Shown piece by piece: positions 4,539 to 28,940 of a stretch of DNA of 64,000 bases. Each line of letters starts with the position of its first letter. Position 1 is the first letter of the stretch. The notes under the pieces are model-generated. The model had not been told where the DNA came from and ran no database searches. It saw nothing but the letters and a program-made list of their open reading frames with translations. The position numbers and the translations under genes are program-made. Location: NCBI GenBank assembly GCA_028279545.1, contig JANQNN010000035.1:27425-91424 (forward strand), given 5' to 3'. Source of the DNA: Nitrosopumilaceae archaeon (GTDB taxonomy: Archaea; Thermoproteota; Nitrososphaeria; Nitrososphaerales; Nitrosopumilaceae).

Positions 4539-5515
4539 ATAATGCAAACCCAATAAAAAAAAATGCTAAAACCGTAAACAAGTATCTAAAAACAAAACTA
4601 AAAGGAAATCCAAAAATACTGTATGACGCAGCAGGACATCTTATTGTAAATGGAGGAAAACGTCTAAGACCTTACATGGTAATTAAAAGCTGCCAAATTT
4701 TAGGTGGCAAGACAGCAACTGCAACCCCAGCTGCTAGTGCAATTGAAATGGTTCATAATTTTACTTTGGTTCATGACGATATAATGGATAATGATGAGAT
4801 GAGACATGGGGTACCAACTGTTCATAAAAAATTTGGATTACCGATTGCGATACTTGCAGGAGATGTTTTATTTTCTAAAGCTTTTCAAATAATTTCAAGT
4901 TCTAAACTTTCTGGCGGGGCAATTTCTCAATTAATATCTCAACTTGCCAAAGGTTGTGTAGACGTATGTGAAGGTCAATTATTAGATATAAAGATGGCCG
5001 ACGAGAAACGAATTCCAACTCAAAAAGAATACATCACAATGATTGGGAAAAAAACTGCTGCATTATTTGATGTTTCTTGTTCTATGGGTGCAATTTGTGC
5101 AAGTAATAAGAAAAAAGATATACAAAACTTGTCTTCTTTTGGAAAAAACTTAGGAATTGCATTTCAAATTACAGACGACTTGATTGGAGTAATGGGTGAT
5201 CCAAAAGTTACAAAAAAACCAGTGGGAAATGATCTTAGAGAAGGAAAAAAATCATTGCCAATTCTTTTAGCAATAAAGCTTGCAAAGGGAAAAAATAAAA
5301 AAATAATTTTAAAGGCTTTTGGTAATCCCAAAGTATCAAAACATGATCTTAACAATGCAGTTGATGTAATAAGATCAATTGGAATAGAGGAAAATGTAAG
5401 AAATCAGGCATTAAAGTATGCAGATAGGGCAAAAAAATCCTTGACAAAATATTCTGGACCAGCTAAAACAGAATTATTTGATTTACTTGATTTTGTAGTA
5501 AAACGTAGTGTCTAA
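4535..5515 (+). CDS. geranylgeranyl diphosphate synthase (trans-polyprenyl synthetase)
   Basis: First Asp-rich motif LVHDDIMDNDEMRHG and second FQITDDLIG. ATG 4535 overlaps the idi stop (ATGA). Confidence 0.85.
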   Translation: MNNANPIKKNAKTVNKYLKTKLKGNPKILYDAAGHLIVNGGKRLRPYMVIKSCQILGGKTATATPAASAIEMVHNFTLVHDDIMDNDEMRHGVPTVHKKFGLPIAILAGDVLFSKAFQIISSSKLSGGAISQLISQLAKGCVDVCEGQLLDIKMADEKRIPTQKEYITMIGKKTAALFDVSCSMGAICASNKKKDIQNLSSFGKNLGIAFQITDDLIGVMGDPKVTKKPVGNDLREGKKSLPILLAIKLAKGKNKKIILKAFGNPKVSKHDLNNAVDVIRSIGIEENVRNQALKYADRAKKSLTKYSGPAKTELFDLLDFVVKRSV

Positions 5516-5525
5516 TTCATCATTA

Positions 5526-5551
5526 TTTTTTGAGAATTTTACCTCAAAAAA
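5526..5551. terminator. bidirectional hairpin with T/A tracts between convergent genes
   Basis: TTTTTTGAG (5526-5534) and CTCAAAAAA (5543-5551) form a perfect 9-bp inverted repeat with an 8-nt loop, 11 nt after the GGPPS stop. Confidence 0.4.
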
Positions 5552-5664
5552 TTAATACGTTTTAAAATTTGAAAAAAGCAGTTTAATTTGTGAAGATGGG
5601 TATTATTGGATGCCCATCCTGAAAATGTTGTTCGGAGTAGGCGAGAGTTTTGTGTTTGTTAGGT

Positions 5665-6222
5665 TTATGCGTGGTCTTCATGCGTATGTGGGGTTTGGCT
5701 GGTCATTGTAGATGAATATTGGAGATGATAACTTGTTAATCCATCACTGAGAGTCCCACTGGCTGCATAAACACACCCTTGATTAAAACCATGAATCATC
5801 TCACCATCCAAAGATACTTGAAAAGTTGTTCCCAGCTCATTTGTTACTTCTCCTTTTGCCTTGAAACCGGCTCCATTTTCAGTAAAGGTCCAGGTGTTAG
5901 GATTTACAACAAATTTGAGTCGCTTTTCATCATTCTCGATAATAAACTGGCCATTTTTTACTAGATAATTATGATCGGTATTTTCACTTGGTATTTCAAA
6001 AAGTCGAAATTGGTAATGACCTTCAAATAAAATTCCAGAATTATCAATAATTGCTCCTTCACCGTCTACAACATCTGTTACTTTTAGTGTAGAAGGAATT
6101 TCTACTTTTTTTGATGACTTGTCTGATGATTTTTCTGCAGTTGCTCCGGGCTGTTGTAGTAATGCAATAGATATTACTAGTAAAACAAAAGATCCAGCGA
6201 TAATTTTATTTCGAAGTTTCAT
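5665..6222 (-). CDS. hypothetical membrane-anchored/secreted protein with His-rich C-terminus
   Basis: MKLRNK followed by a hydrophobic segment (signal or anchor). C-terminus is TPHTHEDHA. No family recognised. Start chosen at the internal ATG 6222. Confidence 0.55.
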   Translation of the reverse strand: MKLRNKIIAGSFVLLVISIALLQQPGATAEKSSDKSSKKVEIPSTLKVTDVVDGEGAIIDNSGILFEGHYQFRLFEIPSENTDHNYLVKNGQFIIENDEKRLKFVVNPNTWTFTENGAGFKAKGEVTNELGTTFQVSLDGEMIHGFNQGCVYAASGTLSDGLTSYHLQYSSTMTSQTPHTHEDHA

Positions 6223-9493: not shown

Positions 9494-9504
9494 GGTGTAA
9501 GAAA

Positions 9505-10395
9505 ATGAAAATTGTAAGACTTTCACAGGATAACAATGAAACGTATGGAATTGTAAAGGAAGACAAAGTTGCAACTAAAGATGAAATTACTTACCAGACA
9601 GGAGTTCCTATTCCACAAAGCATTAAGGATTTTTTATTTGATGGTTGGTTTGATGAAATAAAAAACAAAGTAAAAGACCTCACATATAATGAAAATATTT
9701 CAAATTTCCAAATCCTGGCACCAATTCCTACCCCAAGTAAGATAATTTGCCTTGCCTTTAATTTTACAGACCATGCAGAAGAGCAAGGACATGAAGCTCC
9801 AAAAGATCCCGCTATTGTCATAAAACCTAGAACCGCGCTAACTGGGACAGAATCTGATATTGAATGTCCAGATTTTGTTGGCAAGTTAGACTATGAGGTA
9901 GAGTTGGCATTGGTAATAGGGAAAACATGTAAGAATATTTCAGAAGAGCAGGCATACGAGGCAATATTTGGATATATGGTTTTTAATGATGTTTCTGCAA
10001 GAGACATTCAATTCAAAGATAAACAATTTACACGAGGAAAAGGATTTGATACCTTTGCTCCTTGTGGTCCTTGGATAACAACTAAAGACGAAATCAATGA
10101 CCCTCATAAATTAAAGATGATTACCAAAATCAATGGAGAAATAAAACAAAATTCATCCACAGAAAAAATGTTTATTAAAATTCCTCAAATAGTTTCAAAA
10201 TTGAGTCAGGTAATGACTCTTGAGAGAGGAGATATTATATCAACAGGTACACCTGCAGGAGTAATGTTAAACCAATCAGATGGAATATTTCTTAAAAATG
10301 GAGACAAAATAGAAATGGAGATTGAAAACTTGGGAACTCTAAATAATACAATAAAATTTGTAAAAAATCAAGATAGAGATTTTTTCATCAAATGA
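9505..10395 (+). CDS. fumarylacetoacetate hydrolase (FAH) family protein
   Basis: DYEVELALVIGK, FNDVSARD and GDIISTGTPAGV motifs of the FAH / 2-keto-4-pentenoate hydratase family. Confidence 0.85.
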   Translation: MKIVRLSQDNNETYGIVKEDKVATKDEITYQTGVPIPQSIKDFLFDGWFDEIKNKVKDLTYNENISNFQILAPIPTPSKIICLAFNFTDHAEEQGHEAPKDPAIVIKPRTALTGTESDIECPDFVGKLDYEVELALVIGKTCKNISEEQAYEAIFGYMVFNDVSARDIQFKDKQFTRGKGFDTFAPCGPWITTKDEINDPHKLKMITKINGEIKQNSSTEKMFIKIPQIVSKLSQVMTLERGDIISTGTPAGVMLNQSDGIFLKNGDKIEMEIENLGTLNNTIKFVKNQDRDFFIK

Positions 10396-15784: not shown

Positions 15785-16435
15785 TTAGGAACCTGATTGT
15801 AGTTTCTTCCAATCAGCAAGGAAATTTTCTAGTCCAATATTTGTTAGCGGATGCTTTAGCATTTTATCTAATACTTCAGGTGGTAAAGTAACAACATCGG
15901 CACCGATTTTTGCTGCTTCAATTACGTGTAATGGATGTCTTATACTTGCTACAAGAATTTGTGTTTTAAAATTATAATTTGAAAAAATCGTTTTTATTTC
16001 TTGAATTAAATGCATTCCATCATGTCCTATATCATCTAGTCGTCCAATAAATGGACTGACATATTTTGCTCCAGCCTTTGCTGCAAGAATAGCTTGGTTT
16101 GGTGAAAAAACTAGAGTTACATTTACTGGAATTCCTTCAGAAGTTAATGATTTACACGCCTTTAATCCATCTGGAGTCATTGGTACTTTAACTACTACAT
16201 TATCACCATAGTTTCGAAGGGACCTTCCTTCTTCTAACATTCCAGAATATTCAGTACTAACTACTTCCAAGCTAACATCTCCTTTGATAATTTTTGTAAT
16301 CTCTGCCATTCCATCTTTTGGATTTCCACCTTCCTTTGACATCAAGGAGGGATTGGTAGTAATTCCATCAAGCAATCCCATATCATTGAATTTTCGAATA
16401 GAATCCAAATTTGCAGTATCTAAAAATATTTTCAA
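15785..16435 (-). CDS. tal: transaldolase (short, type 3B / FSA-like)
   Basis: [14 protein letters not shown]-terminus, [10 protein letters not shown] Schiff-base Lys region, 216 aa. Confidence 0.9.
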
Positions 16436-17391
16436 ACTCGTTTACTCCTTATTTCTTTGACTTGTTTAACCATATTAAAAGATGTTATTCCATGTTTTTC
16501 TAAAAGTAATGAAATTTCTTTATCTCGTGCTGACTCTCCAAACATATCTTGCGCACCAATTCTTTTTATCGGAACTGGATATCTTTCTGAAACAGACTCA
16601 GCAACTGCTGAACCTAAACCACCAAAAATGTTGTGCTCCTCGCAGGTAACAATACCACCAGTCTCTCTTGCAGCTTTTTCTAAAAGGTCTCCGTCAATTG
16701 GTTTTATTGAAAACATGTCTAAAACTCTGCAAGAAATTCCTTCTTTTTGTAGCATTTCAGCTGCTTCTAATGCCATTCTCACAGTAATTCCACAAGCAGC
16801 AATTGTACAATCAGAGCCATCCCTTAGAGTAATTCCTTTACCTGTTTGAAATTCTTGGGAAGGAGAGTGGACAATTGGGGTTTTTGACCTTGCCATTCTC
16901 ATGTAAAATGGCCCATACTCGTTTGCCATCAGCTTTACTAATTTTGGAACAGCAATGGTATCAGCTGGAATAAAAACACGAAAGTTTGGAATTACTCGCA
17001 TTATCGCAATATCTTCAATTTGCTGATGAGATCCTCCATCCGGACCTACTGATAAGCCACCGTGGGATGCAACTAGTTTTACGTTAAGTCCTTTTTTTCC
17101 TGGTGGAGAAGGATATGCAATACCATTTCGAATTTGGTCTACTGCTCTTCCTGGGAGAAATATTGCATAAGTACTTGCAAATGCAGTCTTTCCAGAGTAC
17201 GCAAGACCTGCAGATATTGAGACTAGATTTCCTTCAGCAATACCTACATTAAAGAATCGATTTGGAAATTCTCGTCCAAAGGCGGAAGTTTTTAGAGAAT
17301 CAGTTGTATCTGCGCCTAAAACTACAACCTTTTCATTTTGGCTGCCAAGCTCAATTAGGGCTTTAGAGTATTCTGTTCTCATATCACCCAT
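16432..17391 (-). CDS. transketolase, C-terminal (pyrimidine-binding) subunit
   Basis: [12 protein letters not shown]..., GIAEGNLV and GPDGGSHQ motifs. Start moved to ATG 17391 (MGDMRTEY), because the longer ORF overlaps the upstream gene. Confidence 0.9.
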
Positions 17392-17402
17392 TTCTGGTGG
17401 AT

Positions 17403-19073
17403 TCAAATCAAGCCCTCCTCCTGTGCAATTTTTGTGATTTTTTCCTTCTTTTTTCCAACAACATGAAGTCCAATCCACTTGTTTACAAGCTCCGAGCCTC
17501 CAAACTTGTGAGCCTGTTCAAGTAAATTCTTTCTTCTCCTTCGAAGTACTTTGTGTCTAAACTCTCTAATTGCTTCTCTTACATTGTGTTGTCCAATAAT
17601 TGCACTTCCCCCAACAAAGGAACGTGCTCCATCTGCATAGCAAGACCCAACGTTTTCAAGGTTTACACCACCATCAGCTTCGATGTATCCCCGAAAATTA
17701 TTCTCCTTTAGGATAGGATCTAGATATCTCATTTTTTCATGAGTCTCAGGAATGTATTTCTGACCAGACTTGCCAGGAACTACAGACATTACAATTAGTT
17801 GGTCAAGTTTTGGTAGGAATTGATAAGACCATGGTGGCAAATCAGTTTCAGGATTTATTGCAAGACCAACACTTACTTGATTTTGTTTTAAGACATCACT
17901 AATCTCTCCAAAGCTTGATTCATCACAAACTTCTGCATGAACTGTAATGATATCACTTCCGGCATCTACATAATCCCGTAAATGTCTCAAAGGCTGTGAA
18001 ATCATTAGATGTGCATCAAATGGAATAAGAGTAAGCGGACGTAGCTCTTTGATTTTATTGTAATCAAAAGTTTTTGCTGGAACAAAATGGCCATCCATTA
18101 CATCAAGATGAATATAATCTGCTCTTCCATTGACACAACGTTTAACTTCATTTTCTAGGTTTGTCATATCTCCTGCAATAATCGAAGGAGCTATCATAAA
18201 TTGTGCATCAAGTTCTAAATTTATCAAAGGTACAATATCTAAATCCGGAGCTTTTCCGTGCCACTGTGGATTATCTTCCATGTGCTCTACTGCATTTCCT
18301 TTGATAGTTCTGCAGATAATAATTGTAGGAACACCTTTTGTTTGATTTGCTTTTTTTATTGCTCCATCAATTTGCTCAATTCTATGACCGTCAATCTCAA
18401 GTACATTCCATCCAAATGATCTCCACTTGTCTCCAGTCTTCCATCTTGATGCATCCTTCCACATCTCTGAGATATCATCACCAATTAGCTCCTCATCAAG
18501 TGGCATAACTTGTTCGGTGTAAGAGTCTTGTTGGATAAAGTTTCTATCTAAAAATACTGTTAGATTATCTAGCTTGTATTTGGCAGCAGTCATTGCAGCC
18601 TCCCAAATCTGACCTTCATCAGACTCTCCATCTCCAATTATGGTGTAAACATGATGACTCTTGTTGTCAATCTTGGCAGCTAAGGCAATACCTATTGAGT
18701 AGGATAATCCAGTTCCTAGCGAGCCTCCACAAAACTCTACACCTGGGCACTTCAAGTCTGGATGTCCTTGGAGTCTGCTTTCAAATTTTCTTAGAGTCTC
18801 TAGTTCTGATTCTGGAAAATAACCTGCAACTGCCATATTAGAAAACAATCCAGGAGAAGCATGTCCCTTTGAGAGAACAAGTCTGTCCCTGTCTTCCCAT
18901 GTGGGGTTTTTGGGATCAAATCTAAGATGTTTGTAAAATAGGCAGCCTAAAATTTCTGCCATAGAAAATGAACCTCCCGGATGGCCAGAGCCTGCCAGAC
19001 TAGTTGATTTTATGACAAGCTTTCTTGCCTGTAAGATGTTCTTCTTTATGTGATAATAATTCAGACCCAACAT
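17403..19073 (-). CDS. fusion protein: transketolase N-terminal (TPP-binding) subunit + ribulose-phosphate 3-epimerase
   Basis: Residues ~1-285 carry GSGHPGGSFSMAEI and GDGESDEGQIWEA (transketolase N). Residues ~295-510 carry MIAPSIIAGD, HLDVMDGHFVP, MSVVPGKSGQ and EADGGV (Rpe). One uninterrupted ORF. Confidence 0.85.
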   Translation of the reverse strand: MLGLNYYHIKKNILQARKLVIKSTSLAGSGHPGGSFSMAEILGCLFYKHLRFDPKNPTWEDRDRLVLSKGHASPGLFSNMAVAGYFPESELETLRKFESRLQGHPDLKCPGVEFCGGSLGTGLSYSIGIALAAKIDNKSHHVYTIIGDGESDEGQIWEAAMTAAKYKLDNLTVFLDRNFIQQDSYTEQVMPLDEELIGDDISEMWKDASRWKTGDKWRSFGWNVLEIDGHRIEQIDGAIKKANQTKGVPTIIICRTIKGNAVEHMEDNPQWHGKAPDLDIVPLINLELDAQFMIAPSIIAGDMTNLENEVKRCVNGRADYIHLDVMDGHFVPAKTFDYNKIKELRPLTLIPFDAHLMISQPLRHLRDYVDAGSDIITVHAEVCDESSFGEISDVLKQNQVSVGLAINPETDLPPWSYQFLPKLDQLIVMSVVPGKSGQKYIPETHEKMRYLDPILKENNFRGYIEADGGVNLENVGSCYADGARSFVGGSAIIGQHNVREAIREFRHKVLRRRRKNLLEQAHKFGGSELVNKWIGLHVVGKKKEKITKIAQEEGLI

Positions 19074-19158
19074 GTACTTGACTTTTGAAATTTAATAAAA
19101 GTCTATTTCTGCAAAGAAAACTTTGAGAAAAAATCTGATTCGCTAAAACTCATTTATT

Positions 19159-20412
19159 TTATGGAACTGGGGCTACTATAATTACAGCGCCGCCGACTTG
19201 GATCAAGACTCCGCTAAAGGATTCTACAGTAAGGTTGGATCCTGCTGGTATTGTCAAGGTAACTCCATTTGGAATTGTTAGAACAGAGGTGTTCTCAACA
19301 ATTACACTTCCAGCTGCAGTTGCATTTCCAGTCATTGTACAACTAGCATCAACTATCCAATCTCCAAAGACTGGTGGAGCACATGTACAAACATCAATTG
19401 GTTGGTCACCAAAGATTGTTCCAGTAACTGAGCCAAAGCAGTCATTTTCAATTGTTCCAAGGTTAGTAAAGGTGCTAGTGTTAGTTATTGGACCATTGTT
19501 GTTTATGGTACCAAGGTTTGTTACAACACCATTGTTGTCAAAGGCTCCCGTATTGTTGAGTGTACCGTTAATAGTTATTGTGCCATTATTTACTAGAGTT
19601 TCATTGCTGTTGTTTGTAAAAGTAACACCGTTGTTAATTACAAGTGTGGTTCCTGCATCAACGGTTAGCGTGTTTCCTGTCTCAATTGTAGTGTCTTGAG
19701 TTACAGTAATTGTTCCAAGACTATCAAGTGAAAAGCTGTTTGTAATGGAAGTTGCTAGTACTGGTGGATTTGCACCATCAAGTGTTCCATTGTTAACATA
19801 ATCACCATTTAGTGTAAATGTACCGTCATTTGTGAAGGTTCCATTATCAGTAATTGTACCATTGTTTGTTACAACATTGTTGTTAAGAATAGTACCATTG
19901 TTTGTTATGGTGTCTGTTGCATTGTTAATTATTGTACCATTGTTTGTTAGAGTTACCCCACCATTGATTACAAGTTCAGTGCCATCCTCAATAGTTAGGG
20001 TATTTCCAGTCTCAATCGTGGTGTCAGAAGCTGCTGTAATTGTTCCAAGGCTAATTATGGAAAAGCTGTTGGTAATACTTGTGGCTAATATTGGTTGATT
20101 ACCAGTAAAGGTATCAGTGTTTGTGTAATCACCATTTAGAATGAAGGTGCCGTTATTTGTGAAAGTACCATTGTTAGTTACAACATTGTTGTTAATGATT
20201 GTACCATTGTTGAGAATGGTATCATCACTGTCATTGATTATAGTACCATTGTTAGTCAAAGTCTTACCACTATCAACTACAAGTGTTGTGCCTGCACCAA
20301 TAGTTAGTGTAACACCTGCATCAATTGTGGTATCCTCAGTAATGGTAATGGTACCTAGACCATCAAGTGGGAAAGAGTTTGTAACTGAAGTAGCCAACTC
20401 TGGTTGGTTACC
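19159..20412 (-). repeat. ~1.25 kb near-identical block (copy 1) shared by the 3' ends of the two giant genes
   Basis: The last 417 codons of A align without indels to the last 417 codons of B at a constant offset of 5154 nt. Only scattered substitutions by eye. Confidence 0.85.
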
Positions 20413-23400
20413 AGTAAGGGTTCCACCTGCAATATCAAAATCTCCATTTAATGTTAAGGTCGCATTGTTTGTAAAGGTGCCATTATTTATCAAAGTTCCA
20501 TTAAGGATTACCGTAGTTACACTGTTGTTAACTATTGTACCATTGTTTGTTAGAGTAACACCTGTGTCAATTTCTAGAGTAGTGCCAGGACCAATAGTTA
20601 ATGTGTTTCCAGTTTCAACTGTGGTGTCTGCGGTTACATTAATTGTAGCAGAACCAGTAATGTTAGCATCATTTGTAATTGATGTTGCCAAGACTGGTGC
20701 ATTTGTTCCATCAAGGGTTCCATTGTTGGTGAAATCTCCATTTATGGTAAAGGTTCCATTGTTGGTAAGAGTAACAATACTGTCGTTAACTACAGCACCA
20801 TTATTGGTAAGAACGTTATTGTTTATCAAAGTAGAACCACCATTAATTGTTAAAGTCCAAGTTGGGTCAACTACTATCGTAGTTCCAGTACCAATAGTCA
20901 AAGTACTACTACTTGAGATTTGAGTATCTGCATCTATTGTAATTGTCCCAGCTCCAGTGATTGTTGCATCATTGGTTATGTTTGTTGATAAGAATGGCTG
21001 ATTGCCTGTAAACGTTCCATTGTTTGTAAAACTACCATTTAATCCAAGACCACCATTATTTTGTATAGTACCATCATTGATTAGTGTCATTGAACTATGA
21101 ACTGTTAGAGTATCAGAAGCATCAATAGTTAATGTAGTTCCAGTGCCAACAGTAACAGTTACTCCATTATTGATATTGGTATTACCCTTTGTGACAACAT
21201 CACCTGCGTTGATTATTTCAGAATCATGGTTTATCGTGGTATCTAGTTCTGGATCATTACCTGTAATAGTACCTGAACCATTATAATTTCCATCTATTGT
21301 AAAAACGCCTAAGGTATTATCAATTGTACCGTTGTTGATAATAGTGCCTCCATCGATAATGATGGTTTCAAGACTTTGGTTTGTAAGTGTAATACCGGCA
21401 TTAATTACAAGTGTGGTTCCTTCCTCTACAGTTAACGTAGCATCAGTAATTGTTGTATTTTCAGATATAGTGACTGTTGCTAAACCAGATAATGTAACAT
21501 CATTTGTAATATCAGTGGCAAGTATTGGTTGGTTGCCGTTAAAGGTGCCATTTTGATTAAATTGGCCGTTTAGGGTGAAGGTTCCATTATTTGTAAAGGT
21601 ACCATTGTTGGTAAGAGTACCGTTAATGATTATTGTATCATTGTTGATAAGAGTAATAGGGCTTTCGTTAACTAGAATTACACCTTCGTCAACGATAAGA
21701 GTGGTTCCTGTGCCTATAGTTAGGGTATTTGGATCTATAATGTTAGTATTTTGTGTAACGTTAATTGTTCCACCATTGGTAATGCTAGTATCATTTGAGA
21801 TAAATTCTGCCAGTGTTAATTGGTTACCTGTAATGGTACCAGTTCCCGAATAATTTCCGTTTAATTCAACGGTACCTGTTGTATTATCAAGTACACCATT
21901 GTTTATCAAAGCGCCTCCATCAATTTCTAGAGTAACAGGACTTGTGTTTGTAAGTGTAATACCAGAATTAATTACAAGTGTAGTGCCATCTGCAATGTTT
22001 AGAGTTACATCGTCAATTAATGTTGCAACTGCAACTGTAATTGTTCCACCATTTTGTATTGTAGAATCATTGTTTACAGTAGTTGCCAAGGCTGGTGCAG
22101 CGCTTCCAGCAAGGGTTCCACCAGAGTTATCAAAGTCTCCATTTATTGTAAAGGTGTCATTGTTTGTTAGAGTACCAGTGTTGGTGAAAGTACCATTGCT
22201 TGTTACAGTACCATCATTGGTAAATGTTCCACTGTTGATTAAAGTAACATCACTGTTGTTAATGATAATACCGTTGTTAGTTAGAGTATCATTATTTGTA
22301 AGAGTAGAGCCGCTCTCAATTGTAAGGGTAAATGTATCATCAACTACAAATGTGGTTCCAGTTTCAATTGTCACAGAGCCACCATCAATGAATGTGTTTA
22401 CTCCAACGTTAATTGTTCCAGCATTTGTAATTGTTGCTGGATTAGTTACTGTAGTTGCAAGGACTGGTGCATTAGCTCCATCAAGGGTGCCACCCTCATT
22501 ATCAAAGTCACCATTTATGGTAAATGTACCATTGTTGGTAATTGTAGTGTCACTATGATTAACTACTGAACCGTTGTTGGTAAGAGTTCCACCACTATCA
22601 ATCATTAGTGTTGCTCCATCATTAACCCTAAAGGTATTGCCGCTGTCAACTATGATTGTAGTGCCATCACCAATAGTTAGTAAATATGGAGACGTAATTG
22701 TAACATCAGAATCTATGTTAATTTGTGGAACACCAATTAGTAGGGCAACATTGTCAATAGTAGAATTAAGAACTGGTTGATTTGGCCCATTCAAAGTACC
22801 ATCGTTCAAAAAGCTTCCATTAATGGTAAAGGTACCGTTATTGGTTAGAGTACCATCATTATCGATTGTACCATTGACTACAAGAGTTGTATCAGCGTTA
22901 TTGATTAGTGTAGCACCACTCTCAATTGTAAGGGTGAATAAAGGATCAACTTCTATTGTAGTGCCAGCCTCTATGGTTAGAGTATTTGGAGAATCAACTT
23001 GAACGCCAGCTCCTACATTAATTGTTCCAGCTTCAGTAATTGCTGCATCATTTGTAATGTTTGCAGGTAATACTGGTGCGTTATCTCCACCAAGAGTACC
23101 ACCAGTGTTATCAAAGTCTCCGTTTATTGTAAAAGTACCATTGTTGGTAAGAGTACCATTGTTATCAACAGTACCATTGTTAGTAAGAGTACCACCGCTA
23201 TCAACTACAAGAGTAGTAAAAGCGTTGTTAACAATTGTTGCGCCATCTTCAACAACTAGTTCAAAACCCGACTTTACATCAACTGATGTTCCAGCTTCAA
23301 TTGTTAAAGTATTTGGAGAGTCAACTTGAGTTAAAGCTCCTACATCTATAGTTCCAGCATCAGTAATTGTTGCATCATTTGTAATGTTTGCAGCTAGTAC

Positions 23401-24222
23401 TGGTTGATTTCCAGTAAAAGGTGAGTTATTGTCAGTAAAATCTCCGTTTATGATAAAAGTACCACCGGTATTGTCAACCGTAGCATTGTTTACGAAAGCT
23501 CCATTATTGGTGAAAGTATCATTATTATCAAAAGTACCACCGTTTGTAAAAGTAGTAGAACTATTGTTTGCTATGTCACCATTGTTTTCAACTTCACCAC
23601 CAGCATTGGTTGTAAGAGAAGCACCATCAGCAATTGTTAGTGTAAAGGTAGAATTAACATCTAAAATGGTGCCAGTCTCAATTGTTAAAGTATTTGGAGA
23701 TTCAACTGTTGTCTCTGCATTGACGTCAACTATTCCGGCGTCAGTTATTGTTACATCATTATCTACTGTAGTGGCCATTTCTGGTTGATTGCCAGCATAA
23801 CCTTCACTTCCAGAATTATCAAAATCTCCATTTAATGAAATAATTCCACCGGTGTTGTCGATATCACCATTGTTGGTAAAAGAACCATCAATGTTAACAG
23901 TACCGTCATTGGTAAGAAATCCACCAGAATTTATTGTAAAGGAGTCAAGGTCATCAATGGTAAAAGTAAAACCATCTGTAATAAGATCCACACCTGATGG
24001 AACGATAACACCATCTTCGGCTCCTGTTGCAAAGCTAGCAGTTAAGGTACAAGTATCTGGATCTGGACCTGCATCAAAGGTACCAATTATTGGTCCATCG
24101 CCGTCACAAGTTGTGGCATCTACAGTAAAGGCAGCACCTGCATGAGCCTCTGGCATCATACTTGGAACTGCTAAAATCATGGAGATCACAAAAATAGGCA
24201 CGAAAAGTAACGAAATTTTCAA
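19159..24222 (-). CDS. giant secreted Thr/Asn/Gly-rich modular repeat protein A (1687 aa, 14 modules)
   Basis: TTG start. Signal-like MKISLLFVPIFVISMILAVPSMMPEAHAG. 14 modules of 85-124 aa, each opening with GNQP-x-LAT-x-ITN or a variant. Unique 83-aa Cys4 C-terminal domain. Uninterrupted 5 kb frame. Confidence 0.85.
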   Translation of the reverse strand: MKISLLFVPIFVISMILAVPSMMPEAHAGAAFTVDATTCDGDGPIIGTFDAGPDPDTCTLTASFATGAEDGVIVPSGVDLITDGFTFTIDDLDSFTINSGGFLTNDGTVNIDGSFTNNGDIDNTGGIISLNGDFDNSGSEGYAGNQPEMATTVDNDVTITDAGIVDVNAETTVESPNTLTIETGTILDVNSTFTLTIADGASLTTNAGGEVENNGDIANNSSTTFTNGGTFDNNDTFTNNGAFVNNATVDNTGGTFIINGDFTDNNSPFTGNQPVLAANITNDATITDAGTIDVGALTQVDSPNTLTIEAGTSVDVKSGFELVVEDGATIVNNAFTTLVVDSGGTLTNNGTVDNNGTLTNNGTFTINGDFDNTGGTLGGDNAPVLPANITNDAAITEAGTINVGAGVQVDSPNTLTIEAGTTIEVDPLFTLTIESGATLINNADTTLVVNGTIDNDGTLTNNGTFTINGSFLNDGTLNGPNQPVLNSTIDNVALLIGVPQINIDSDVTITSPYLLTIGDGTTIIVDSGNTFRVNDGATLMIDSGGTLTNNGSVVNHSDTTITNNGTFTINGDFDNEGGTLDGANAPVLATTVTNPATITNAGTINVGVNTFIDGGSVTIETGTTFVVDDTFTLTIESGSTLTNNDTLTNNGIIINNSDVTLINSGTFTNDGTVTSNGTFTNTGTLTNNDTFTINGDFDNSGGTLAGSAAPALATTVNNDSTIQNGGTITVAVATLIDDVTLNIADGTTLVINSGITLTNTSPVTLEIDGGALINNGVLDNTTGTVELNGNYSGTGTITGNQLTLAEFISNDTSITNGGTINVTQNTNIIDPNTLTIGTGTTLIVDEGVILVNESPITLINNDTIIINGTLTNNGTFTNNGTFTLNGQFNQNGTFNGNQPILATDITNDVTLSGLATVTISENTTITDATLTVEEGTTLVINAGITLTNQSLETIIIDGGTIINNGTIDNTLGVFTIDGNYNGSGTITGNDPELDTTINHDSEIINAGDVVTKGNTNINNGVTVTVGTGTTLTIDASDTLTVHSSMTLINDGTIQNNGGLGLNGSFTNNGTFTGNQPFLSTNITNDATITGAGTITIDADTQISSSSTLTIGTGTTIVVDPTWTLTINGGSTLINNNVLTNNGAVVNDSIVTLTNNGTFTINGDFTNNGTLDGTNAPVLATSITNDANITGSATINVTADTTVETGNTLTIGPGTTLEIDTGVTLTNNGTIVNNSVTTVILNGTLINNGTFTNNATLTLNGDFDIAGGTLTGNQPELATSVTNSFPLDGLGTITITEDTTIDAGVTLTIGAGTTLVVDSGKTLTNNGTIINDSDDTILNNGTIINNNVVTNNGTFTNNGTFILNGDYTNTDTFTGNQPILATSITNSFSIISLGTITAASDTTIETGNTLTIEDGTELVINGGVTLTNNGTIINNATDTITNNGTILNNNVVTNNGTITDNGTFTNDGTFTLNGDYVNNGTLDGANPPVLATSITNSFSLDSLGTITVTQDTTIETGNTLTVDAGTTLVINNGVTFTNNSNETLVNNGTITINGTLNNTGAFDNNGVVTNLGTINNNGPITNTSTFTNLGTIENDCFGSVTGTIFGDQPIDVCTCAPPVFGDWIVDASCTMTGNATAAGSVIVENTSVLTIPNGVTLTIPAGSNLTVESFSGVLIQVGGAVIIVAPVP
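21829..22479 (-). repeat. ~0.65 kb near-identical internal block (copy 1; modules A5-A6)
   Basis: 217 codons from GANAPVLATTVTNPATITNAG to NGNYSGTGTIT are nearly identical to B modules 2-3. The offset is 5148 nt. Confidence 0.8.
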
Positions 24223-24312
24223 TACAATATTTTGAAACAGGATCTTTATTAGCCTTTTTTATGAATAAATCCTTTTAACCTTCTTTTTTCCTGATCTGAA
24301 GATTTTTTCAGA

Positions 24313-25566
24313 TTATGAAACTGGGGCTACTATAATTACTGCACCGCCGACTTGGATCAAAACTCCACTAAGTGAAACTACGGTCAGGTTAGATCCTGCA
24401 GGTATTGTCAAAGTGACACCATTGGGAACTGTTAGGACAGAGTTGTTTAAGACAAGGACATTTCCTGCTGCTGTGGCATTTGCAGACATTGTACAACTTT
24501 CATCAACTACCCAATCTCCAAAGACTGGTGGTGAACATGTACAAATATCGATTGGTTGATCTCCAAAGATTGTTCCAGTAACTGAGCCAAAGCAGTCATT
24601 TTGAATTGTTCCAAGGTTGGTAAAGGTGCTAGTGTTAGTTATTGGACCATTGTTGTTTATGGTACCAAGGTTAGTTACAACACTATTGTTGGTAAATGCT
24701 CCACTATTGTTAACAGTTCCATTGTTTGTTATTGTGCCGTTATTAATTAGAGTCTCACTACTGTTGTTAGTCAAAGTAACACCATTGTTTATTACAAGGG
24801 TGGTTCCTGCATCAACAGTTAGGGTGTTTCCTTCCTCAATTGTAGTATCAGCTGCTACGGTAATTGTTCCAAGACTATCAAGTGAGAAGGTGTTTGTAAT
24901 GGAAGTTGCTAATACTGGTGGATTTGCACCATCAAGTGTTCCATTGTTAACATAATCTCCATTTAGTGTAAAGGTTCCATCATTTGTGAAGGTTCCATTA
25001 TCAGTAATTGTACCATTGTTTGTTACTACATTGTTGTTAAGGATAGTACCATTGTTTGTTATGGTATCTGTTGCATTGTTAATTATGGTACCATTGTTTG
25101 TTAGAGTAACACCGCCATTAATTACAAGTTCAGTGCCATCCTCAATGGTCAAAGTATTTCCAGTCTCAATTGTGGTGTTGGAGGTTGCTGTAATTGTTCC
25201 AAGACTAATTATTGAAAAGCTGTTGGTAATGCTTGTGGCTAATATTGGCTGGTTACCAGTAAAGGTATCAGTGTTTGTGTAATCTCCATTTAGAATGAAG
25301 GTACCGTTGTTTGTGAAAGTACCATTGTTTGTGACAACATTGTTGTTAATGATTGTACCATTGTTGAGGATAGTATCATCGCTGTCATTAATTATAGTGC
25401 CATTGTTTGTTAGAGTTTGGCCACTATCAACTACTAGCGTGGTTCCTGCACCAACGGTAAGGGTAACACCTGCATCAATTGTGGTATCTTCAGTTATTGT
25501 AATTGTGCCTAATCCATCAAGTGGGAAAGAGTTTGTAACTGAAGTTGCCAACTCTGGTTGGTTACC
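24313..25566 (-). repeat. ~1.25 kb near-identical block (copy 2)
   Basis: Counterpart of 19159-20412. Confidence 0.85.
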
Positions 25567-28380
25567 TGTAAAGGTTCCACCTGAGATATCCAAATCTCCG
25601 TTTAGAATTATTTCTCCATTGTTAGTAAGAGTACCATCATTGTCAAGGGTGCCATTTACAATTATAGTGAATGCACTATTGTTAACAATTGTACCATTGT
25701 TGGTAAGAGTAACGCCAGTGTTAATGTCTAATGTAGTGACATTATCGAGTGTAAGAGTGACACCACCATTGATTGTGGTATTTTCTGTGACGTTAATTGT
25801 CCCTGCTGAATTAATGGTAGAATCGTTTGTCAAGGTAGTTGCCAAAGCAGGGGCAGTAGTTCCATCCAGAGTTCCTAAGTTAATGAAATCCCCATTTATT
25901 GTAAAAGTACCATTATTCGTGAAGGTTTCATTGTTATTGAAAGTACCGTTATTGATTATGGTATCGTTATTGATGACAGTTGAGGGACTGTTGTTAGTAA
26001 ATACACCGCCAATATCAATTACTAGTGTGGTGCCAGTGCCAATTGTTAAGGTGTTAGGATTTTGAAGTGTAGTTGGCGCAGTAATTGTAATTGTTCCAGC
26101 ACCAGTAATTGTAGCATCATTATTAATTACAGTAGCTAGTTGTGGTTGATTACCTGTAAATGTGCCGTTATTGGTAAAACTTCCGTTTAATACTATGGCT
26201 CCATCATTGTCAATAGTCCCATTGTTTACAATTGTATCGAAACTGTTATTGTAAAGAGTATCAGAAGCATCAATGTTTAAAGTCGTACCAGTACCAATAG
26301 TCAGAGTAGAACCAGGATTAACAAAAGTATCAGACTGTGTGACAACTGTTCCTGCATTAGTTATTGTAGAGTCATAAGAAATGTTTAATCTTAGTATTGG
26401 ATTATTTCCAGTAATGGTTCCTGTGCCCGAATAATTTCCATTTATTCTAAAAGTACCAGTTGTGTTATCAATTGTACCGTTGTTGATTATAGTACCACCC
26501 ATGATTTCAAGAGTAACAACACTATTGTTTGTAAGTGTAACACCAGCATTGATTACAAGTGTGGTATCTTCACCCACTGTTAAAGTTACTCCATCAATTA
26601 GCGTGTTTTCAGAAACGGTAATTGTGGCAAGATTTGTTATTGAAAAACTGTTAGTAAGAGTAGTTGCAAGTTCTGGTTGGTTGCCAGAAAAGATTCCAAA
26701 TTGGTTAAATTGTCCATTTAATGTCAAAGTGCCATTGTTGGTAAAGGTCTCAAAATTATCAAGAGTACCATTTACAATAATTATATTATTGTTGACCAGG
26801 GTTGCAGTACTATCGTTAGTTAATGTAAAACCTTGGTCAATAATTAGAGTGGTACCAGTACCAATAGTTAGAGTGTTAGGGTCTTGAATGGTAGTGTTAG
26901 CTGAAACATTAATTGTTCCCGCATTAGTAATCGTAGCATCCTTAGTTATTTCTGTAGCTAGTACTGGCTGGTTACCAGTAATGGTTCCAGTTCCTGAATA
27001 ATTTCCGTTTAATTCAACTAAGCCTGTGTTATTATCAAGTATGCCGTTGTTAATCAGTGCACCTCCATCAATTTCTAGAGTAAAAGGAGTTGTGTTGGTA
27101 AGGGTAATACCAGAATTAATTACAAGTGTGGTGCCATCAGCAATGTTTAGAGTTACATCGTCAATCAAAGTGCCAATTGCAACGGTAATTGTTCCACCAT
27201 TTTGTATTGTAGCATCATTATCTACAGTAGTTGCCAAGGCAGGAGCTGCACTTCCAGCAAGGGTTCCACCAGAGTTGTCAAAGTTTCCATTTATTGTAAA
27301 GGTGTCATTGTTTGTTAGAGTACCAGTGTTGGTAAACGTACCATTGTTTGTTACTGTACCATCATTGGTAAAGGTGCCACTGTTGTTGAGAGTAACATCA
27401 CTGTTGTTAATGATAGTACCATTGTTTGTTAGAGTGTCATTATTTGTAAGAGAAGAGCCACTCTCAATTGTAAGGACAAATGTGTCATCGACTACAAGTG
27501 TTGTACCTGTTTCAATGGTTACAGAACCGCCGTCAATGAATGTGTTTACTCCAACGTTAATTGTTCCAGCATTTGTAATTGTTGCTGGATTAGTTACAGT
27601 AGTTGCAAGTACTGGTGCATTTGCTCCTGCTAAAGACCCCCCAGTGTTATCCAAACTACCATTTAGTGTAAAGGTACCATTGTTTGTTATTGTCCCGGGA
27701 CTGTAATTAAATATAGTACCATTGTTTAGCAATTCCGCACCGCTGTCTATTGTAACTGATGCGCCATCATGAATCACAAGACATTCGCCAGCTATCACGT
27801 CCAATGTGGTTCCTGTTGCCAAGGTTACTGTATTTGGAGGATCAATTCCAGTACAATCATCAGAAGCGTTAACAGTTCCCGCATTAGTTATTGTAACATC
27901 ATTTGTTACACTAGATGCAAGTCTAGGAAGGGTTCCGCCATCCAAAGTTCCACCAGTATTATCAAAGTCTCCATTTATTGTAAAAGTACCACTGTTTGTA
28001 AAGGTTCCAGGATTGGTAAAAGCTCCATTGAGTACTAGAGAAACATCACTGTTGTTATCTAAATCCCCATTGTTTGTAAGAAAAGCACCAGAATTAATTG
28101 TTAAAGTATGACCACTTGCAATTGTAAAAGTATCACCACTATCTACGATAAATTCAACACCAGAAGCTACCGTCAAATCTCCAGTAGTTGTAAAGGAAGC
28201 ACCAGTAGTACATGTATCAGGGTCAGGTCCTGCATCCCAAACAGCACTAGTTACCAGGGTTTCACAAGATGTTTCATCAAAGATAGTATCACCTCCTGCA
28301 TATGCATCAGGCAACATAATTGGAAAAAGGGCAAATCCTAGGATCGCAAATAGTCCGACAAAAATTCCCCCGATTTTCAT
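24313..28380 (-). CDS. giant secreted Thr/Asn/Gly-rich modular repeat protein B (1355 aa, 11 modules), paralogue of A
   Basis: ATG start. Signal-like MKIGGIFVGLFAILGFALFPIMLPDAYAG. 11 modules collinear with modules 4-14 of A, and the same C-terminal Cys4 domain. Confidence 0.85.
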   Translation of the reverse strand: MKIGGIFVGLFAILGFALFPIMLPDAYAGGDTIFDETSCETLVTSAVWDAGPDPDTCTTGASFTTTGDLTVASGVEFIVDSGDTFTIASGHTLTINSGAFLTNNGDLDNNSDVSLVLNGAFTNPGTFTNSGTFTINGDFDNTGGTLDGGTLPRLASSVTNDVTITNAGTVNASDDCTGIDPPNTVTLATGTTLDVIAGECLVIHDGASVTIDSGAELLNNGTIFNYSPGTITNNGTFTLNGSLDNTGGSLAGANAPVLATTVTNPATITNAGTINVGVNTFIDGGSVTIETGTTLVVDDTFVLTIESGSSLTNNDTLTNNGTIINNSDVTLNNSGTFTNDGTVTNNGTFTNTGTLTNNDTFTINGNFDNSGGTLAGSAAPALATTVDNDATIQNGGTITVAIGTLIDDVTLNIADGTTLVINSGITLTNTTPFTLEIDGGALINNGILDNNTGLVELNGNYSGTGTITGNQPVLATEITKDATITNAGTINVSANTTIQDPNTLTIGTGTTLIIDQGFTLTNDSTATLVNNNIIIVNGTLDNFETFTNNGTLTLNGQFNQFGIFSGNQPELATTLTNSFSITNLATITVSENTLIDGVTLTVGEDTTLVINAGVTLTNNSVVTLEIMGGTIINNGTIDNTTGTFRINGNYSGTGTITGNNPILRLNISYDSTITNAGTVVTQSDTFVNPGSTLTIGTGTTLNIDASDTLYNNSFDTIVNNGTIDNDGAIVLNGSFTNNGTFTGNQPQLATVINNDATITGAGTITITAPTTLQNPNTLTIGTGTTLVIDIGGVFTNNSPSTVINNDTIINNGTFNNNETFTNNGTFTINGDFINLGTLDGTTAPALATTLTNDSTINSAGTINVTENTTINGGVTLTLDNVTTLDINTGVTLTNNGTIVNNSAFTIIVNGTLDNDGTLTNNGEIILNGDLDISGGTFTGNQPELATSVTNSFPLDGLGTITITEDTTIDAGVTLTVGAGTTLVVDSGQTLTNNGTIINDSDDTILNNGTIINNNVVTNNGTFTNNGTFILNGDYTNTDTFTGNQPILATSITNSFSIISLGTITATSNTTIETGNTLTIEDGTELVINGGVTLTNNGTIINNATDTITNNGTILNNNVVTNNGTITDNGTFTNDGTFTLNGDYVNNGTLDGANPPVLATSITNTFSLDSLGTITVAADTTIEEGNTLTVDAGTTLVINNGVTLTNNSSETLINNGTITNNGTVNNSGAFTNNSVVTNLGTINNNGPITNTSTFTNLGTIQNDCFGSVTGTIFGDQPIDICTCSPPVFGDWVVDESCTMSANATAAGNVLVLNNSVLTVPNGVTLTIPAGSNLTVVSLSGVLIQVGGAVIIVAPVS
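26977..27627 (-). repeat. ~0.65 kb near-identical internal block (copy 2; modules B2-B3)
   Basis: Counterpart of 21829-22479. Confidence 0.8.
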
Positions 28381-28559
28381 AGATAGTCTGATAAAATCTG
28401 ATTTAATAGATTTTTCTTAGAATAAAAAATCAGGACTAATAGGAAAGAAAAATTGTGCCTAATTTTTGGAAAAAAACTACATAATCAAGGGGAAAGCAAC
28501 AAGAAACCTTTGTGATTATTTTCTGTAAGATATTAATCTGATCGGGGGTATTCTATAGT

Positions 28560-28940
28560 ATGAATATTTTAGAAAACACGCCAATTGTAATGTACGATAA
28601 TCTTTGTTATCTTTGCACAAAATTTGCAAAATTTGTAAATTTCCTAGCAAGAGGAAATCTTACCATTATTGGGCATTACACAACTCAAGGAGAAGAGATT
28701 CGAGACAAAATACTAGATGACTCTGCCCTTGAGATGTTTTGGCTGGTTGATAAAAAAACAGCATATGGTGGACGAGCAGCCCTTTTGCCATTAATTAAAG
28801 CAATTTTTTCATCAAAAAAGAAAGCCACAAACCAAATTGATTTTGATGATTCTTGCTTACAAGAATGCAAAACAGTAAAATCTGTTTTTATTAGATCTGC
28901 TAGCCTATTATCTAACAGCAAAAAAATAGAGTTTACGTAA
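28560..28940 (+). CDS. DCC1-like thiol-disulfide oxidoreductase (DUF393) family protein
   Basis: N-terminal VMYDNLCYLCTKFAKFV matches the D-x-x-C-x-x-C start of the DCC family. Confidence 0.55.
   Translation: MNILENTPIVMYDNLCYLCTKFAKFVNFLARGNLTIIGHYTTQGEEIRDKILDDSALEMFWLVDKKTAYGGRAALLPLIKAIFSSKKKATNQIDFDDSCLQECKTVKSVFIRSASLLSNSKKIEFT

Follow-up and report, generated by a model that had tools for sequence, protein, structure and literature searches.

Long, thin beta-helical rods, built from short repeats rich in Asn, Thr, Gly and Val and displayed on the cell surface, are known from the type Va autotransporters Ag43, TibA, AIDA-I, Hbp, Hap, pertactin and Fap2. The haemagglutinins of the two-partner secretion (TPS) type such as FHA, HxuA and EtpA are beta-helical fibres, too. 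In Archaea, methanogen adhesin-like proteins, the proteins of cell-wall-associated islands of the Haloquadratum type and the products of Marine Group I hypervariable genes are large, repetitive and strain-variable surface proteins encoded in flexible regions (PMC3990693, PMC11532034, PMC4535781), and flexible islands rich in cell-surface genes have been described for the Marine Group I Thaumarchaeota (PMC3990693). A further theme is the C-terminal tag, a single module that ends many unrelated proteins with an N-terminal signal. Representatives are the C-terminal domain (CTD) of the type IX secretion system (T9SS; Por_Secre_tail), PEP-CTERM/MYXO-CTERM, LPXTG, PGF-CTERM and the thaumarchaeal PEFG-CTERM. 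Here two adjacent genes of a Nitrosopumilaceae archaeon, termed A and B, are compared with these systems. They are located in a stretch of 64,000 nt, called the window, to which all coordinates without another source refer. Both encode giant modular proteins with a predicted beta-solenoid fold, and both end in a CTD that was found at the end of many otherwise unrelated proteins.

Architecture of proteins A and B

Gene A (19159-24222) encodes 1687 aa from a TTG start and comprises 14 modules; gene B (24313-28380) encodes 1355 aa from an ATG start and comprises 11 modules. Both genes, and all of their parts named below, lie on the minus strand. The frames are uninterrupted over 5.1 and 4.1 kb, respectively, which confirms the two intact same-strand open reading frames (ORFs) of an earlier sequence-only reading of this DNA. 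The TTG start of A is supported by the alignment of its N-terminus with the MKI... N-terminus of B. The two N-termini are alike and show a K-containing n-region, a hydrophobic core and A-H-A or A-Y-A at residues 26-28, so that the signal-like N-terminus with an A-x-A site was recovered as first described. The signal-peptide-like segment of A (residues 1-28, MKISLLFVPIFVISMILAVPSMMPEAHA; 24139-24222) carries K2, the hydrophobic core and the A-H-A site; that of B (residues 1-28, ending in PDAYA; 28297-28380) was likewise read from the sequence. Judged by these features, the segment of A would be cleaved off.

The signal-like segment is followed by a cap region with a Cys pair, by the repeat stalk and by a Cys-rich tail. 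The cap comprises residues 29-143 with Cys39/Cys58 in A (23794-24138), delimited by sequence and homologous to the modelled region of B, which covers residues 29-147 with Cys39/Cys57 (27940-28296). The stalk spans residues 144-1594 in A (modules 1-14; 19441-23793) and residues 148-1262 in B (modules 1-11; 24595-27939). Exactly 14 and 11 modules, the numbers proposed before, are counted by a regular expression for the module opener. The proposed module size of 85-124 aa holds at its lower bound, but the upper bound has to be raised to 127 aa. The tail (A, residues 1595-1687, 19162-19440; B, residues 1263-1355, 24316-24594) begins with a 2-Cys connector, CFGSVTGTIFGDQPIDVC in A, and continues with a core CTD of about 70 aa with two further Cys, which in A follows the pattern C-x-PP-x-x-G-D-W...C...NLTV...GVLIQVGG.... 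The tail indeed contains the four Cys ascribed to it, but measures 93 aa from the first Cys instead of 83 aa. A contains Cys39/58 and the four C-terminal Cys, B contains Cys39/57, 176/200 and the four C-terminal Cys; the positions of the Cys residues and the neighbouring genes agree with the earlier description.

The composition of both proteins is dominated by T (20 %), N (14 %) and G (12 %). Each contains only 5 Lys and Arg residues and 2-4 His; Asp and Glu number 170 in A and 115 in B. The predicted net charge is about -165 (A) and -111 (B), the mature mass 168 and 135 kDa. The DNA repeats with a period of 18 nt, corresponding to the hexads, and one repeat family counts 74 copies; the autocorrelation of hydrophobicity in the proteins peaks at 6 residues. 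Heavy N-glycosylation was considered as the cause of the composition, but is not supported by an excess of sequons of about 1.25-fold over expectation.

Each gene is preceded by an AT-rich TATA-like box. The one of B (tattaaat, 28401-28408) lies 20 nt upstream of the ATG and may be the archaeal promoter of an mRNA with a short leader or none; the one of A (ctaataaag, 24244-24252) lies 21 nt upstream of the TTG and is a candidate separate promoter. One such box per gene is consistent with separate, near-leaderless archaeal transcripts. Opposite A and B, antisense ORFs of 219-260 aa are present on the plus strand (20141-20923, 21899-22558, 25295-26065 and 27026-27706); they most likely arise from the repetitive codon composition with its few stops rather than being genes.

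Fold prediction and comparison with beta-helical proteins

Full-length A and B gave no match above threshold in Pfam and NCBIfam, and sequence searches of the PDB with full-length B and with a CTD profile returned noise only, in agreement with the earlier statement that no curated domain family is present. The nearest Pfam model was the Fil_haemagg repeat (PF05594) with 17.5 and 16.3 bits, below its cut-off of 21.5 bits. At E<=1, no match was reported in A or B for PATR (PF12951) or for the translocator barrel Autotransporter (PF03797). The N-terminal domain of TPS proteins (Haemagg_act) had no Pfam match in A or B, the N-terminus consisting of the signal-like segment and the Cys-pair cap, and the Hexapep profile did not match either. 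A word-indexed search of 5.8 billion proteins with full-length B found identities of at most 31 %, mostly to compositionally similar beta-helix proteins; several of these weak matches carry PATR repeats, autotransporter barrels or T9SS tails.

AlphaFold2 was run on two constructs with other modules and homologues as alignment rows. The model of module 14 and the tail of A has a mean predicted local distance difference test score (pLDDT) of 84.1, with values above 90 in the CTD, short beta strands of period 6 and a low-confidence connector at construct residues 116-126. The model of B residues 28-468, comprising the N-terminal region and modules 1-3, has a mean pLDDT of 89.3 and a predicted TM-score (pTM) of 0.86. 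Its three modules (pLDDT about 90) form an unbroken beta-solenoid, and the high pTM speaks for one continuous rigid body. In the cap (pLDDT 60-92) a helix at construct residues 9-15 is followed by beta rungs which run into module 1; this short helix and the first rungs stand in the place of a separate globular head, which was not seen in the B model. Both models are all-beta and built of strands 3-5 residues long, with a spacing of about 8 residues in mid-module and of exactly 6 in the hexad tail. If each rung takes up about 20 residues and 0.48 nm, the estimated rod length is roughly 40 nm for A and 32 nm for B.

A comparison of the models with the PDB by Foldseek retrieved beta-helical proteins exclusively, the best one being Ag43b (E=1.1e-3, prob 0.93). 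Further neighbours were other Ag43 structures, TibA, Hbp, Fap2, the HK620 tailspike, EtpA, Hap and pertactin; in the viral library BFVD, neck appendages, tailspikes and beta-helices of giant viruses were found. Neither PDB nor BFVD contained a match at family level. The beta-solenoid or fibre that had been predicted from the periodicity is thus borne out by the models, and the assignment to this fold class is well supported, while membership in a family is not.

The type Va passengers are the best structural neighbours of A and B (7kob, E=1.1e-3; 4kh3, 7ko9, 4q1q), and both groups are long thin rods of short N/T/G/V-rich repeats with surface display, which for A and B is presumed. In contrast to the autotransporters, A and B possess neither a beta-barrel translocator nor an autochaperone; the C-terminus is modelled as a soluble beta domain of 70 aa, and their archaeal host has no outer membrane. 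Super-modules of 100 aa, extreme acidity and a different C-terminal domain are found in A and B only. The TPS haemagglutinins are related in the same sense, since HxuA and EtpA occur among the Foldseek matches; however, the Fil_haemagg score of A and B stays below the cut-off, and a TPS secretion domain and a TpsB partner are missing. The strict hexads [IVF]-T-N-N-G-T of the module tails and their predicted period-6 strands recall the left-handed beta-helices (LbetaH) of the Hexapep and LpxA-like type, but besides the missing Hexapep match no LbetaH protein is among the significant Foldseek neighbours, and the module centres are spaced by about 8. The archaeal strain-variable surface proteins use catalogued domains (PbH1/Beta_helix, Ig-like and others), whereas the modules and the CTD of A and B match no catalogued model at all. 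By analogy, the self-associating autotransporter adhesins appear to be the closest functional counterparts, with the fold class as the only one of their defining features that A and B have in common. The earlier verdict that the proteins belong to no recognizable family nevertheless overstates their isolation, because the fold class is that of autotransporter and TPS adhesin passengers and smaller relatives of the same layout exist (see below).

Beta-helices also form carbohydrate-active enzymes, and weak structural matches included pectate lyases, polygalacturonases, the alginate epimerase AlgG and tailspike depolymerases. A and B could accordingly be imagined as lyases, hydrolases or epimerases acting on extracellular polysaccharide. 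We consider this very unlikely: Beta_helix (PF13229), Pectate_lyase and NosD of Pfam gave no match in A or B even at E<=1, and the NCBIfam models gave none; the Lys, Arg and His residues which such active sites normally need are nearly absent (5 K+R, 2-4 His); and the repeats are uniform, with neither a loop-rich groove nor a catalytic motif kept across modules.

A family of C-terminal domains

The CTD was first met in two unrelated proteins of Nitrosopumilus (locus L053, OZ250170.1), one of the propeller-like/Ig and one of the FG-GAP/Ig type. This locus came from a scan in which the conserved neighbour tktN-rpe was the query and each species was represented by one genome. The two proteins share the ending C-x-PP-x-SG-[DN]-W-...-C-...-NVIVQNNSxLxIPxGxTLxIDF..NLTVxSGSGVLIKSGGTIT. 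A profile of four sequences led to 26 fragments on short contigs, and A and B align with the L053 proteins and with these fragments along the entire CTD, including the Cys pair, the motif PP-x-x-G-[DN]-W and three terminal rungs (profile matches E=1e-31 to 1e-11). The word-indexed search with the C-terminal 101 aa of B alone gave zero matches, a result that is misleading in view of the profile searches. With only the tails of A and B as query, an exhaustive HMMER search of 1.84 billion cluster representatives yielded 624 clusters at E<=1e-3 and 161 at E<=1e-10. The domain had been called unique in the sequence-only reading; it is in fact shared by these 624 representatives and joined to diverse passengers.

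Among the 168 proteins retrieved, the CTD ends at most 12 residues from the C-terminus in 157; in A and B it ends 0-9 aa before the stop codon. A hydrophobic N-terminal segment is present in 53 of 82 full-length members, and the mean composition of the members is acidic (10.9 % acidic versus 4.2 % basic residues). The most frequent passengers are subtilases (Peptidase_S8, 20/67), followed by SGL/NHL/FG-GAP propellers, Ig-like arrays, plastocyanin/amicyanin and NosD-type beta-helices. In bacteria these passenger types typically bear anchors with the family names PEP-CTERM, MYXO-CTERM or LPXTG. The CTD itself is covered by no profile of Pfam, NCBIfam or the PDB and is described in no paper found; literature searches for a thaumarchaeal C-terminal domain or beta-helix adhesin gave no relevant description. 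Carriers with a named source come from Nitrosopumilus (L053; P0029), and two more contexts are archaeal, with genes for histone, S17e and CGI-121.

By analogy with the known tags, the terminal position behind many unrelated signal-bearing proteins would be the signature of a sorting or anchoring tag. The domain of A and B has in common with the T9SS CTD that it is a folded beta domain, about 70 aa long, and not a transmembrane helix. It differs from the known C-terminal tags in that no sequence or profile matches it and in that a transmembrane helix and basic residues are lacking: the end ...GGAVIIVAPVP contains no basic residue and is modelled as beta strands, and archaeosortase-type tags (PGF-CTERM, PEFG-CTERM and related ones) had no NCBIfam match in A or B at E<=1, as had been noted before. 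A sortase-like or T9SS-like partner was not identified. Since there is no transmembrane helix, no basic tail and no matching model, the mechanism would have to differ from that of the known tags. Tentatively, and with considerable reserve, the CTD may be seen as an undescribed surface-display system, a folded, non-covalent envelope or S-layer tag for the exoproteins of ammonia-oxidising archaea, with A and B, polyanionic rods of 30-40 nm that serve strain-specific surface remodelling, as its largest cargo. The logic would resemble that of the T9SS CTD or of SLH domains, and the cargo would consist of proteases, cupredoxins, propellers and giant fibres.

Alternatively, the CTD could be a folding cap or a module for oligomerisation or matrix assembly, and A and B would then be released as extracellular matrix, sheath or aggregation scaffold. 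This has some appeal, as the CTD itself is a mini beta-helix weakly similar to the module core: sub-hits of its hidden Markov model are scattered all over A and B, and MAFFT misplaced CTD fragments onto modules. Moreover, it lies more than 12 residues from the C-terminus in 11 of the 168 proteins, and eight CTD-like copies in tandem occur in P0051. However, a plain beta-helix cap is not expected behind subtilases, propellers and cupredoxins, and the terminal position in 157/168 is typical of sorting or anchoring tags, which makes this alternative unlikely.

Two carriers depart from the common pattern. P0051 (2103 aa, on a contig of 2.25 Mb) combines its eight CTD-like stretches (E=1.7e-107) with PKD/Ig and choice-of-anchor-U domains, and the CTD can therefore be an internal tandem array besides a terminal tag. 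P0054 (L102) contains two CTD copies and a papain-like protease domain, and the adjoining genes encode Fibrinogen_C, NIDO and Peptidase_S74 domains; this hints at the CTD, or a look-alike, beyond the Nitrosopumilaceae.

Paralogy of A and B and their relatives

Modules 2-11 of B are collinear with modules 5-14 of A; the modules share only 32-67 % identity among themselves. The divergence of the two genes was determined by Nei-Gojobori analysis. The synonymous divergence (dS) is bimodal, with values of 0.31-0.56 on the one hand and of 0.75 to saturated on the other. The low values belong to A5-6/B2-3 (0.31-0.43) and to A12-14 plus tail/B9-11 plus tail (0.38-0.56), the high ones to the N-terminal region and A7-11/B4-8. 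The pair is therefore a mosaic that arose by recombination or gene conversion after duplication, and A and B are tandem paralogues. The ratio of nonsynonymous to synonymous divergence (dN/dS) between them is 0.015-0.41 overall and lowest, 0.015-0.02, in modules 12-13. Both genes are kept by purifying selection, which argues strongly against an artefact or pseudogene status.

Proteins of the same layout exist elsewhere. P0069 is complete with 441 aa and two modules, has the same ...DAYA signal end and a C...W...C cap, and its tail ends in GGTVIVIS. P0053 on contig L081, which is covered 2x, is a homologue of at least 1500 aa with a frameshift; it lies at a different locus and is 57-60 % identical over the last modules and the tail. 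L085-L089 encode proteins of about 320 aa with one short stalk. In L090 (3-1022, plus strand) a hexad stalk of GGTITN repeats leads into the 4-Cys connector, and a CHRD-like insert separates the latter from the CTD, so the junction of connector and CTD tolerates the insertion of a domain. The connector to which the two additional Cys ahead of the core CTD belong, N-x-[QD]-C-[FG]-x-x-x-x-G-x-x-x-x-x-x-P-I-x-x-C-x-C, is found only after N-x-G-T hexad stalks. The architecture is hence real, and its module number varies from about 1 to 14. Public data contain it only rarely, since a metagenome scan found no more than 17 loci, all short or distant.

Repetitive genes are prone to errors in assemblies, the public relatives are mostly fragments on short contigs, and L081 is frameshifted at 2x coverage. 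A and B might hence be repeat assembly chimeras, as the sequence-only reading had considered, or decaying pseudogenes that are never expressed. That they are either is scarcely credible. The frames are open over their whole length, the modules with their 32-67 % identity are easy to assemble, and selection is strong in modules 12-13 at a dS of 0.39-0.56; in addition, independent homologues share the layout, and each gene has its own TATA-like box.

Analogous super-modules, composed of an opener, '...TLTIP.G.TL.I...' and N-x-G-T repeats, were observed in P0001 (2264 aa), P0002 (1742 aa) and P0052 (1312 aa). These three distant proteins differ in composition; unusual N-termini and Gly-rich blocks occur in P0001 and P0002. 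All three may stem from eukaryotes or giant viruses, and the design of the modules would then appear convergent or very ancient.

Insertion into a conserved junction

On one side, A and B are flanked by genes for CorA, transaldolase, transketolase-C and a transketolase-N/rpe fusion, on the other side by a 126-aa ORF, pepA, ABCE1 and Trm5/Tyw2. These genes are 72-89 % identical to those of Nitrosopumilaceae archaea. The spacer between tktN-rpe and the divergent pair of the 126-aa ORF and pepA, called the slot, was compared in 75 Nitrosopumilaceae loci with both flanks. It measures at most 122 bp in 54 of the 75 loci, with a mode of 71-76 bp, and 0.4-1.6 kb with small unrelated genes in about 19. 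In L053 the slot has 4.7 kb and contains an unrelated propeller/Ig surface protein with the same CTD as A and B; in the window it has 9486 bp. The sequence-only reading had suggested a check of the same slot in other Nitrosopumilaceae; A and B are missing from nearly all of the related genomes. What had been described as a housekeeping context is rather a 9.4-kb insertion into a conserved junction, which places the pair among the surface genes of flexible islands.

The alignment of intact junctions with the flanks of the window shows that a block of about 9.4 kb (about 19141-28514), composed of A, B, the upstream region of B and the A-B spacer, splits the canonical tkt/rpe-small126 junction. 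A spacer core of about 28 nt (ATCAGATT...TTGCAGAAATAGA) is imperfectly duplicated on both sides of the block. The left copy (ATCAGATTAATATCTTACAGAAAATAAT; 28515-28542, minus strand) aligns with the canonical spacer of L001, L004 and L009; the right copy (ATCAGATT...CTTTGCAGAAATAGAC; 19101-19139, minus strand) contains a run of six T at 19128-19133, 26-31 nt past the stop codon of A. The duplicated core resembles an attL/attR or target-duplication footprint, and no integrase or transposase ORF is present in the inserted block. A foreign origin of the insert was rejected, as the GC content at third codon positions (GC3) of A and B, 0.23-0.25 versus 0.16-0.28 in the neighbours, and the codon usage are native-like. 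The donor must therefore have been compositionally similar and was probably another Nitrosopumilaceae genome or locus.

The octamer ATCAGATT occurs at 19132-19139, 28395-28402 and 28535-28542 (minus strand), that is, three of the six copies in the window lie at the insertion boundaries or in the promoter region of B. Over the 64 kb it is not enriched (6 observed versus 5.8 expected), and the clustering may or may not matter.

The distribution of A and B bears on a possible role in the capture of cations. Ammonia oxidisers are thought, from the S-layer literature on N. maritimus, to concentrate ammonium by a negatively charged envelope, and A and B, with their extreme net charge and almost no basic residues, could extend such an envelope as polyanionic capture surfaces for NH4+, Ca2+ or metals, for mineral or for ice. 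Arrays of the T-x-T/T-x-N type on a flat solenoid would fit, and ice-binding beta-solenoids are among the weak Foldseek matches. These matches, however, stand far down the list at E>1, a Ca-binding motif such as GGxGxD of RTX proteins is lacking in A and B, and the lack of both genes in nearly all relatives speaks against a core role in acquiring ammonium. Altogether, capture as the function of A and B seems quite unlikely.

Some further observations concern the slot and its neighbours. The tktN-rpe fusion ORF (17403-19073, minus strand) joins the N-terminal (TPP-binding) half of transketolase to ribulose-phosphate 3-epimerase and has matches over its whole length (residues ~2-556) in the majority of 80 Nitrosopumilaceae loci. 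It overlaps the upstream end of the transketolase-C ORF (16432-17478) by 76 nt, which probably reflects an over-extended start. The 126-aa ORF (28560-28940, plus strand) lies directly upstream of pepA, has no Pfam match and is syntenic in nearly all Nitrosopumilaceae loci examined, with 47-76 % identity; it is probably a real uncharacterised gene that is co-transcribed with pepA. A conserved 189-aa Cys-rich ORF (...FPC(I/V)SCHT(D/N/E)CCKEY...) was found in slots of about 730 bp in L012, L014, L016, L019, L020, L021, L023 and L045. It is another occupant of the insertion hotspot and a recurrent one, with at least eight genomes carrying it. The slot of L015 and L047 (~9500-9860) encodes a small protein in which zinc-ribbon-like motifs (KCGDCGNDCQVPF(K/Q)PKEDRPVYCRECFQNH) are duplicated and the linker is rich in RGG. 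Beside the CTD gene of L053, at 5357-6132, a (TG/CA)n microsatellite (VCVCVC/THTHTH) and a purine-rich tract (translated KKKKRRRRRRRRKK) were observed; this simple-sequence DNA lies at the edge of the L053 insertion.

Proposed function

Taken as a whole, we lean, by no great measure, towards A and B being Sec-exported, disulfide-capped polyanionic beta-solenoid rods which are held on the envelope by the CTD and serve as strain-variable adhesive or protective fibres. The proteins would leave the cell via Sec, and the signal would be cut after AHA in A or AYA in B. Outside the membrane each would fold into one long thin rod, with the short N-terminal helix and the Cys pair as cap. Each super-module of about 100 aa would contribute an irregular opener, about two wide rungs with a spacing of ~8 residues and about three narrow rungs of the hexad [IVF]-T-N-N-G-T, and the rod would end with the Cys-rich connector and the CTD as a small beta domain of three rungs. 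As a portable module common to hundreds of exported, mostly Nitrosopumilaceae-type proteins, the CTD would retain its cargo on the S-layer or on the pseudo-periplasmic face, and the cell would display A and B as polyanionic fibres of about 30-40 nm. Such fibres could mediate the attachment to particles, hosts or other cells, or could act as shield or decoy against viruses and grazers. A variable adhesive or protective role is proposed because of the strain-specific insertion, the differing module number and the recombination mosaic.

Several points speak against these rods being anchored adhesive fibres. No distinct ligand-binding head domain is visible, and for this reason the adhesin role rests on the analogy with self-associating autotransporters. 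The Foldseek TM-scores of 0.2-0.35 are borderline, so the likeness to adhesins holds at the level of the fold class only. The CTD could equally be a folding cap or an oligomerisation or ligand-binding module, and the context (L102) of its divergent carrier P0054 is of uncertain taxonomy. Finally, N-x-S/T sequons number 71 and 63 in the two proteins, a mild excess only over the 57 and 49 expected from the composition.

Implications for ammonia-oxidising archaea

As giant beta-helical surface proteins in a flexible island, the fibres belong to a known theme and alone are not surprising. A and B are a clean case of surface genes inserted strain-specifically into a housekeeping junction which is frozen otherwise. 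They should be useful for the study of surface diversification driven by viruses or grazers, or of niche attachment, in ammonia-oxidising archaea.

The uncurated CTD family is the more valuable by-product and may serve as a marker of the exoproteome that these organisms display. Ammonia-oxidising archaea rank with the most abundant cells of the ocean. To our knowledge, beyond the S-layer and the PEFG-CTERM tag little has been reported on the ways in which they keep enzymes and fibres at the cell surface. If the CTD is an anchoring tag, it would provide a sequence handle to list the displayed exoproteome, with subtilases, copper proteins, propellers and fibres, and it would imply a testable binding partner on the envelope.

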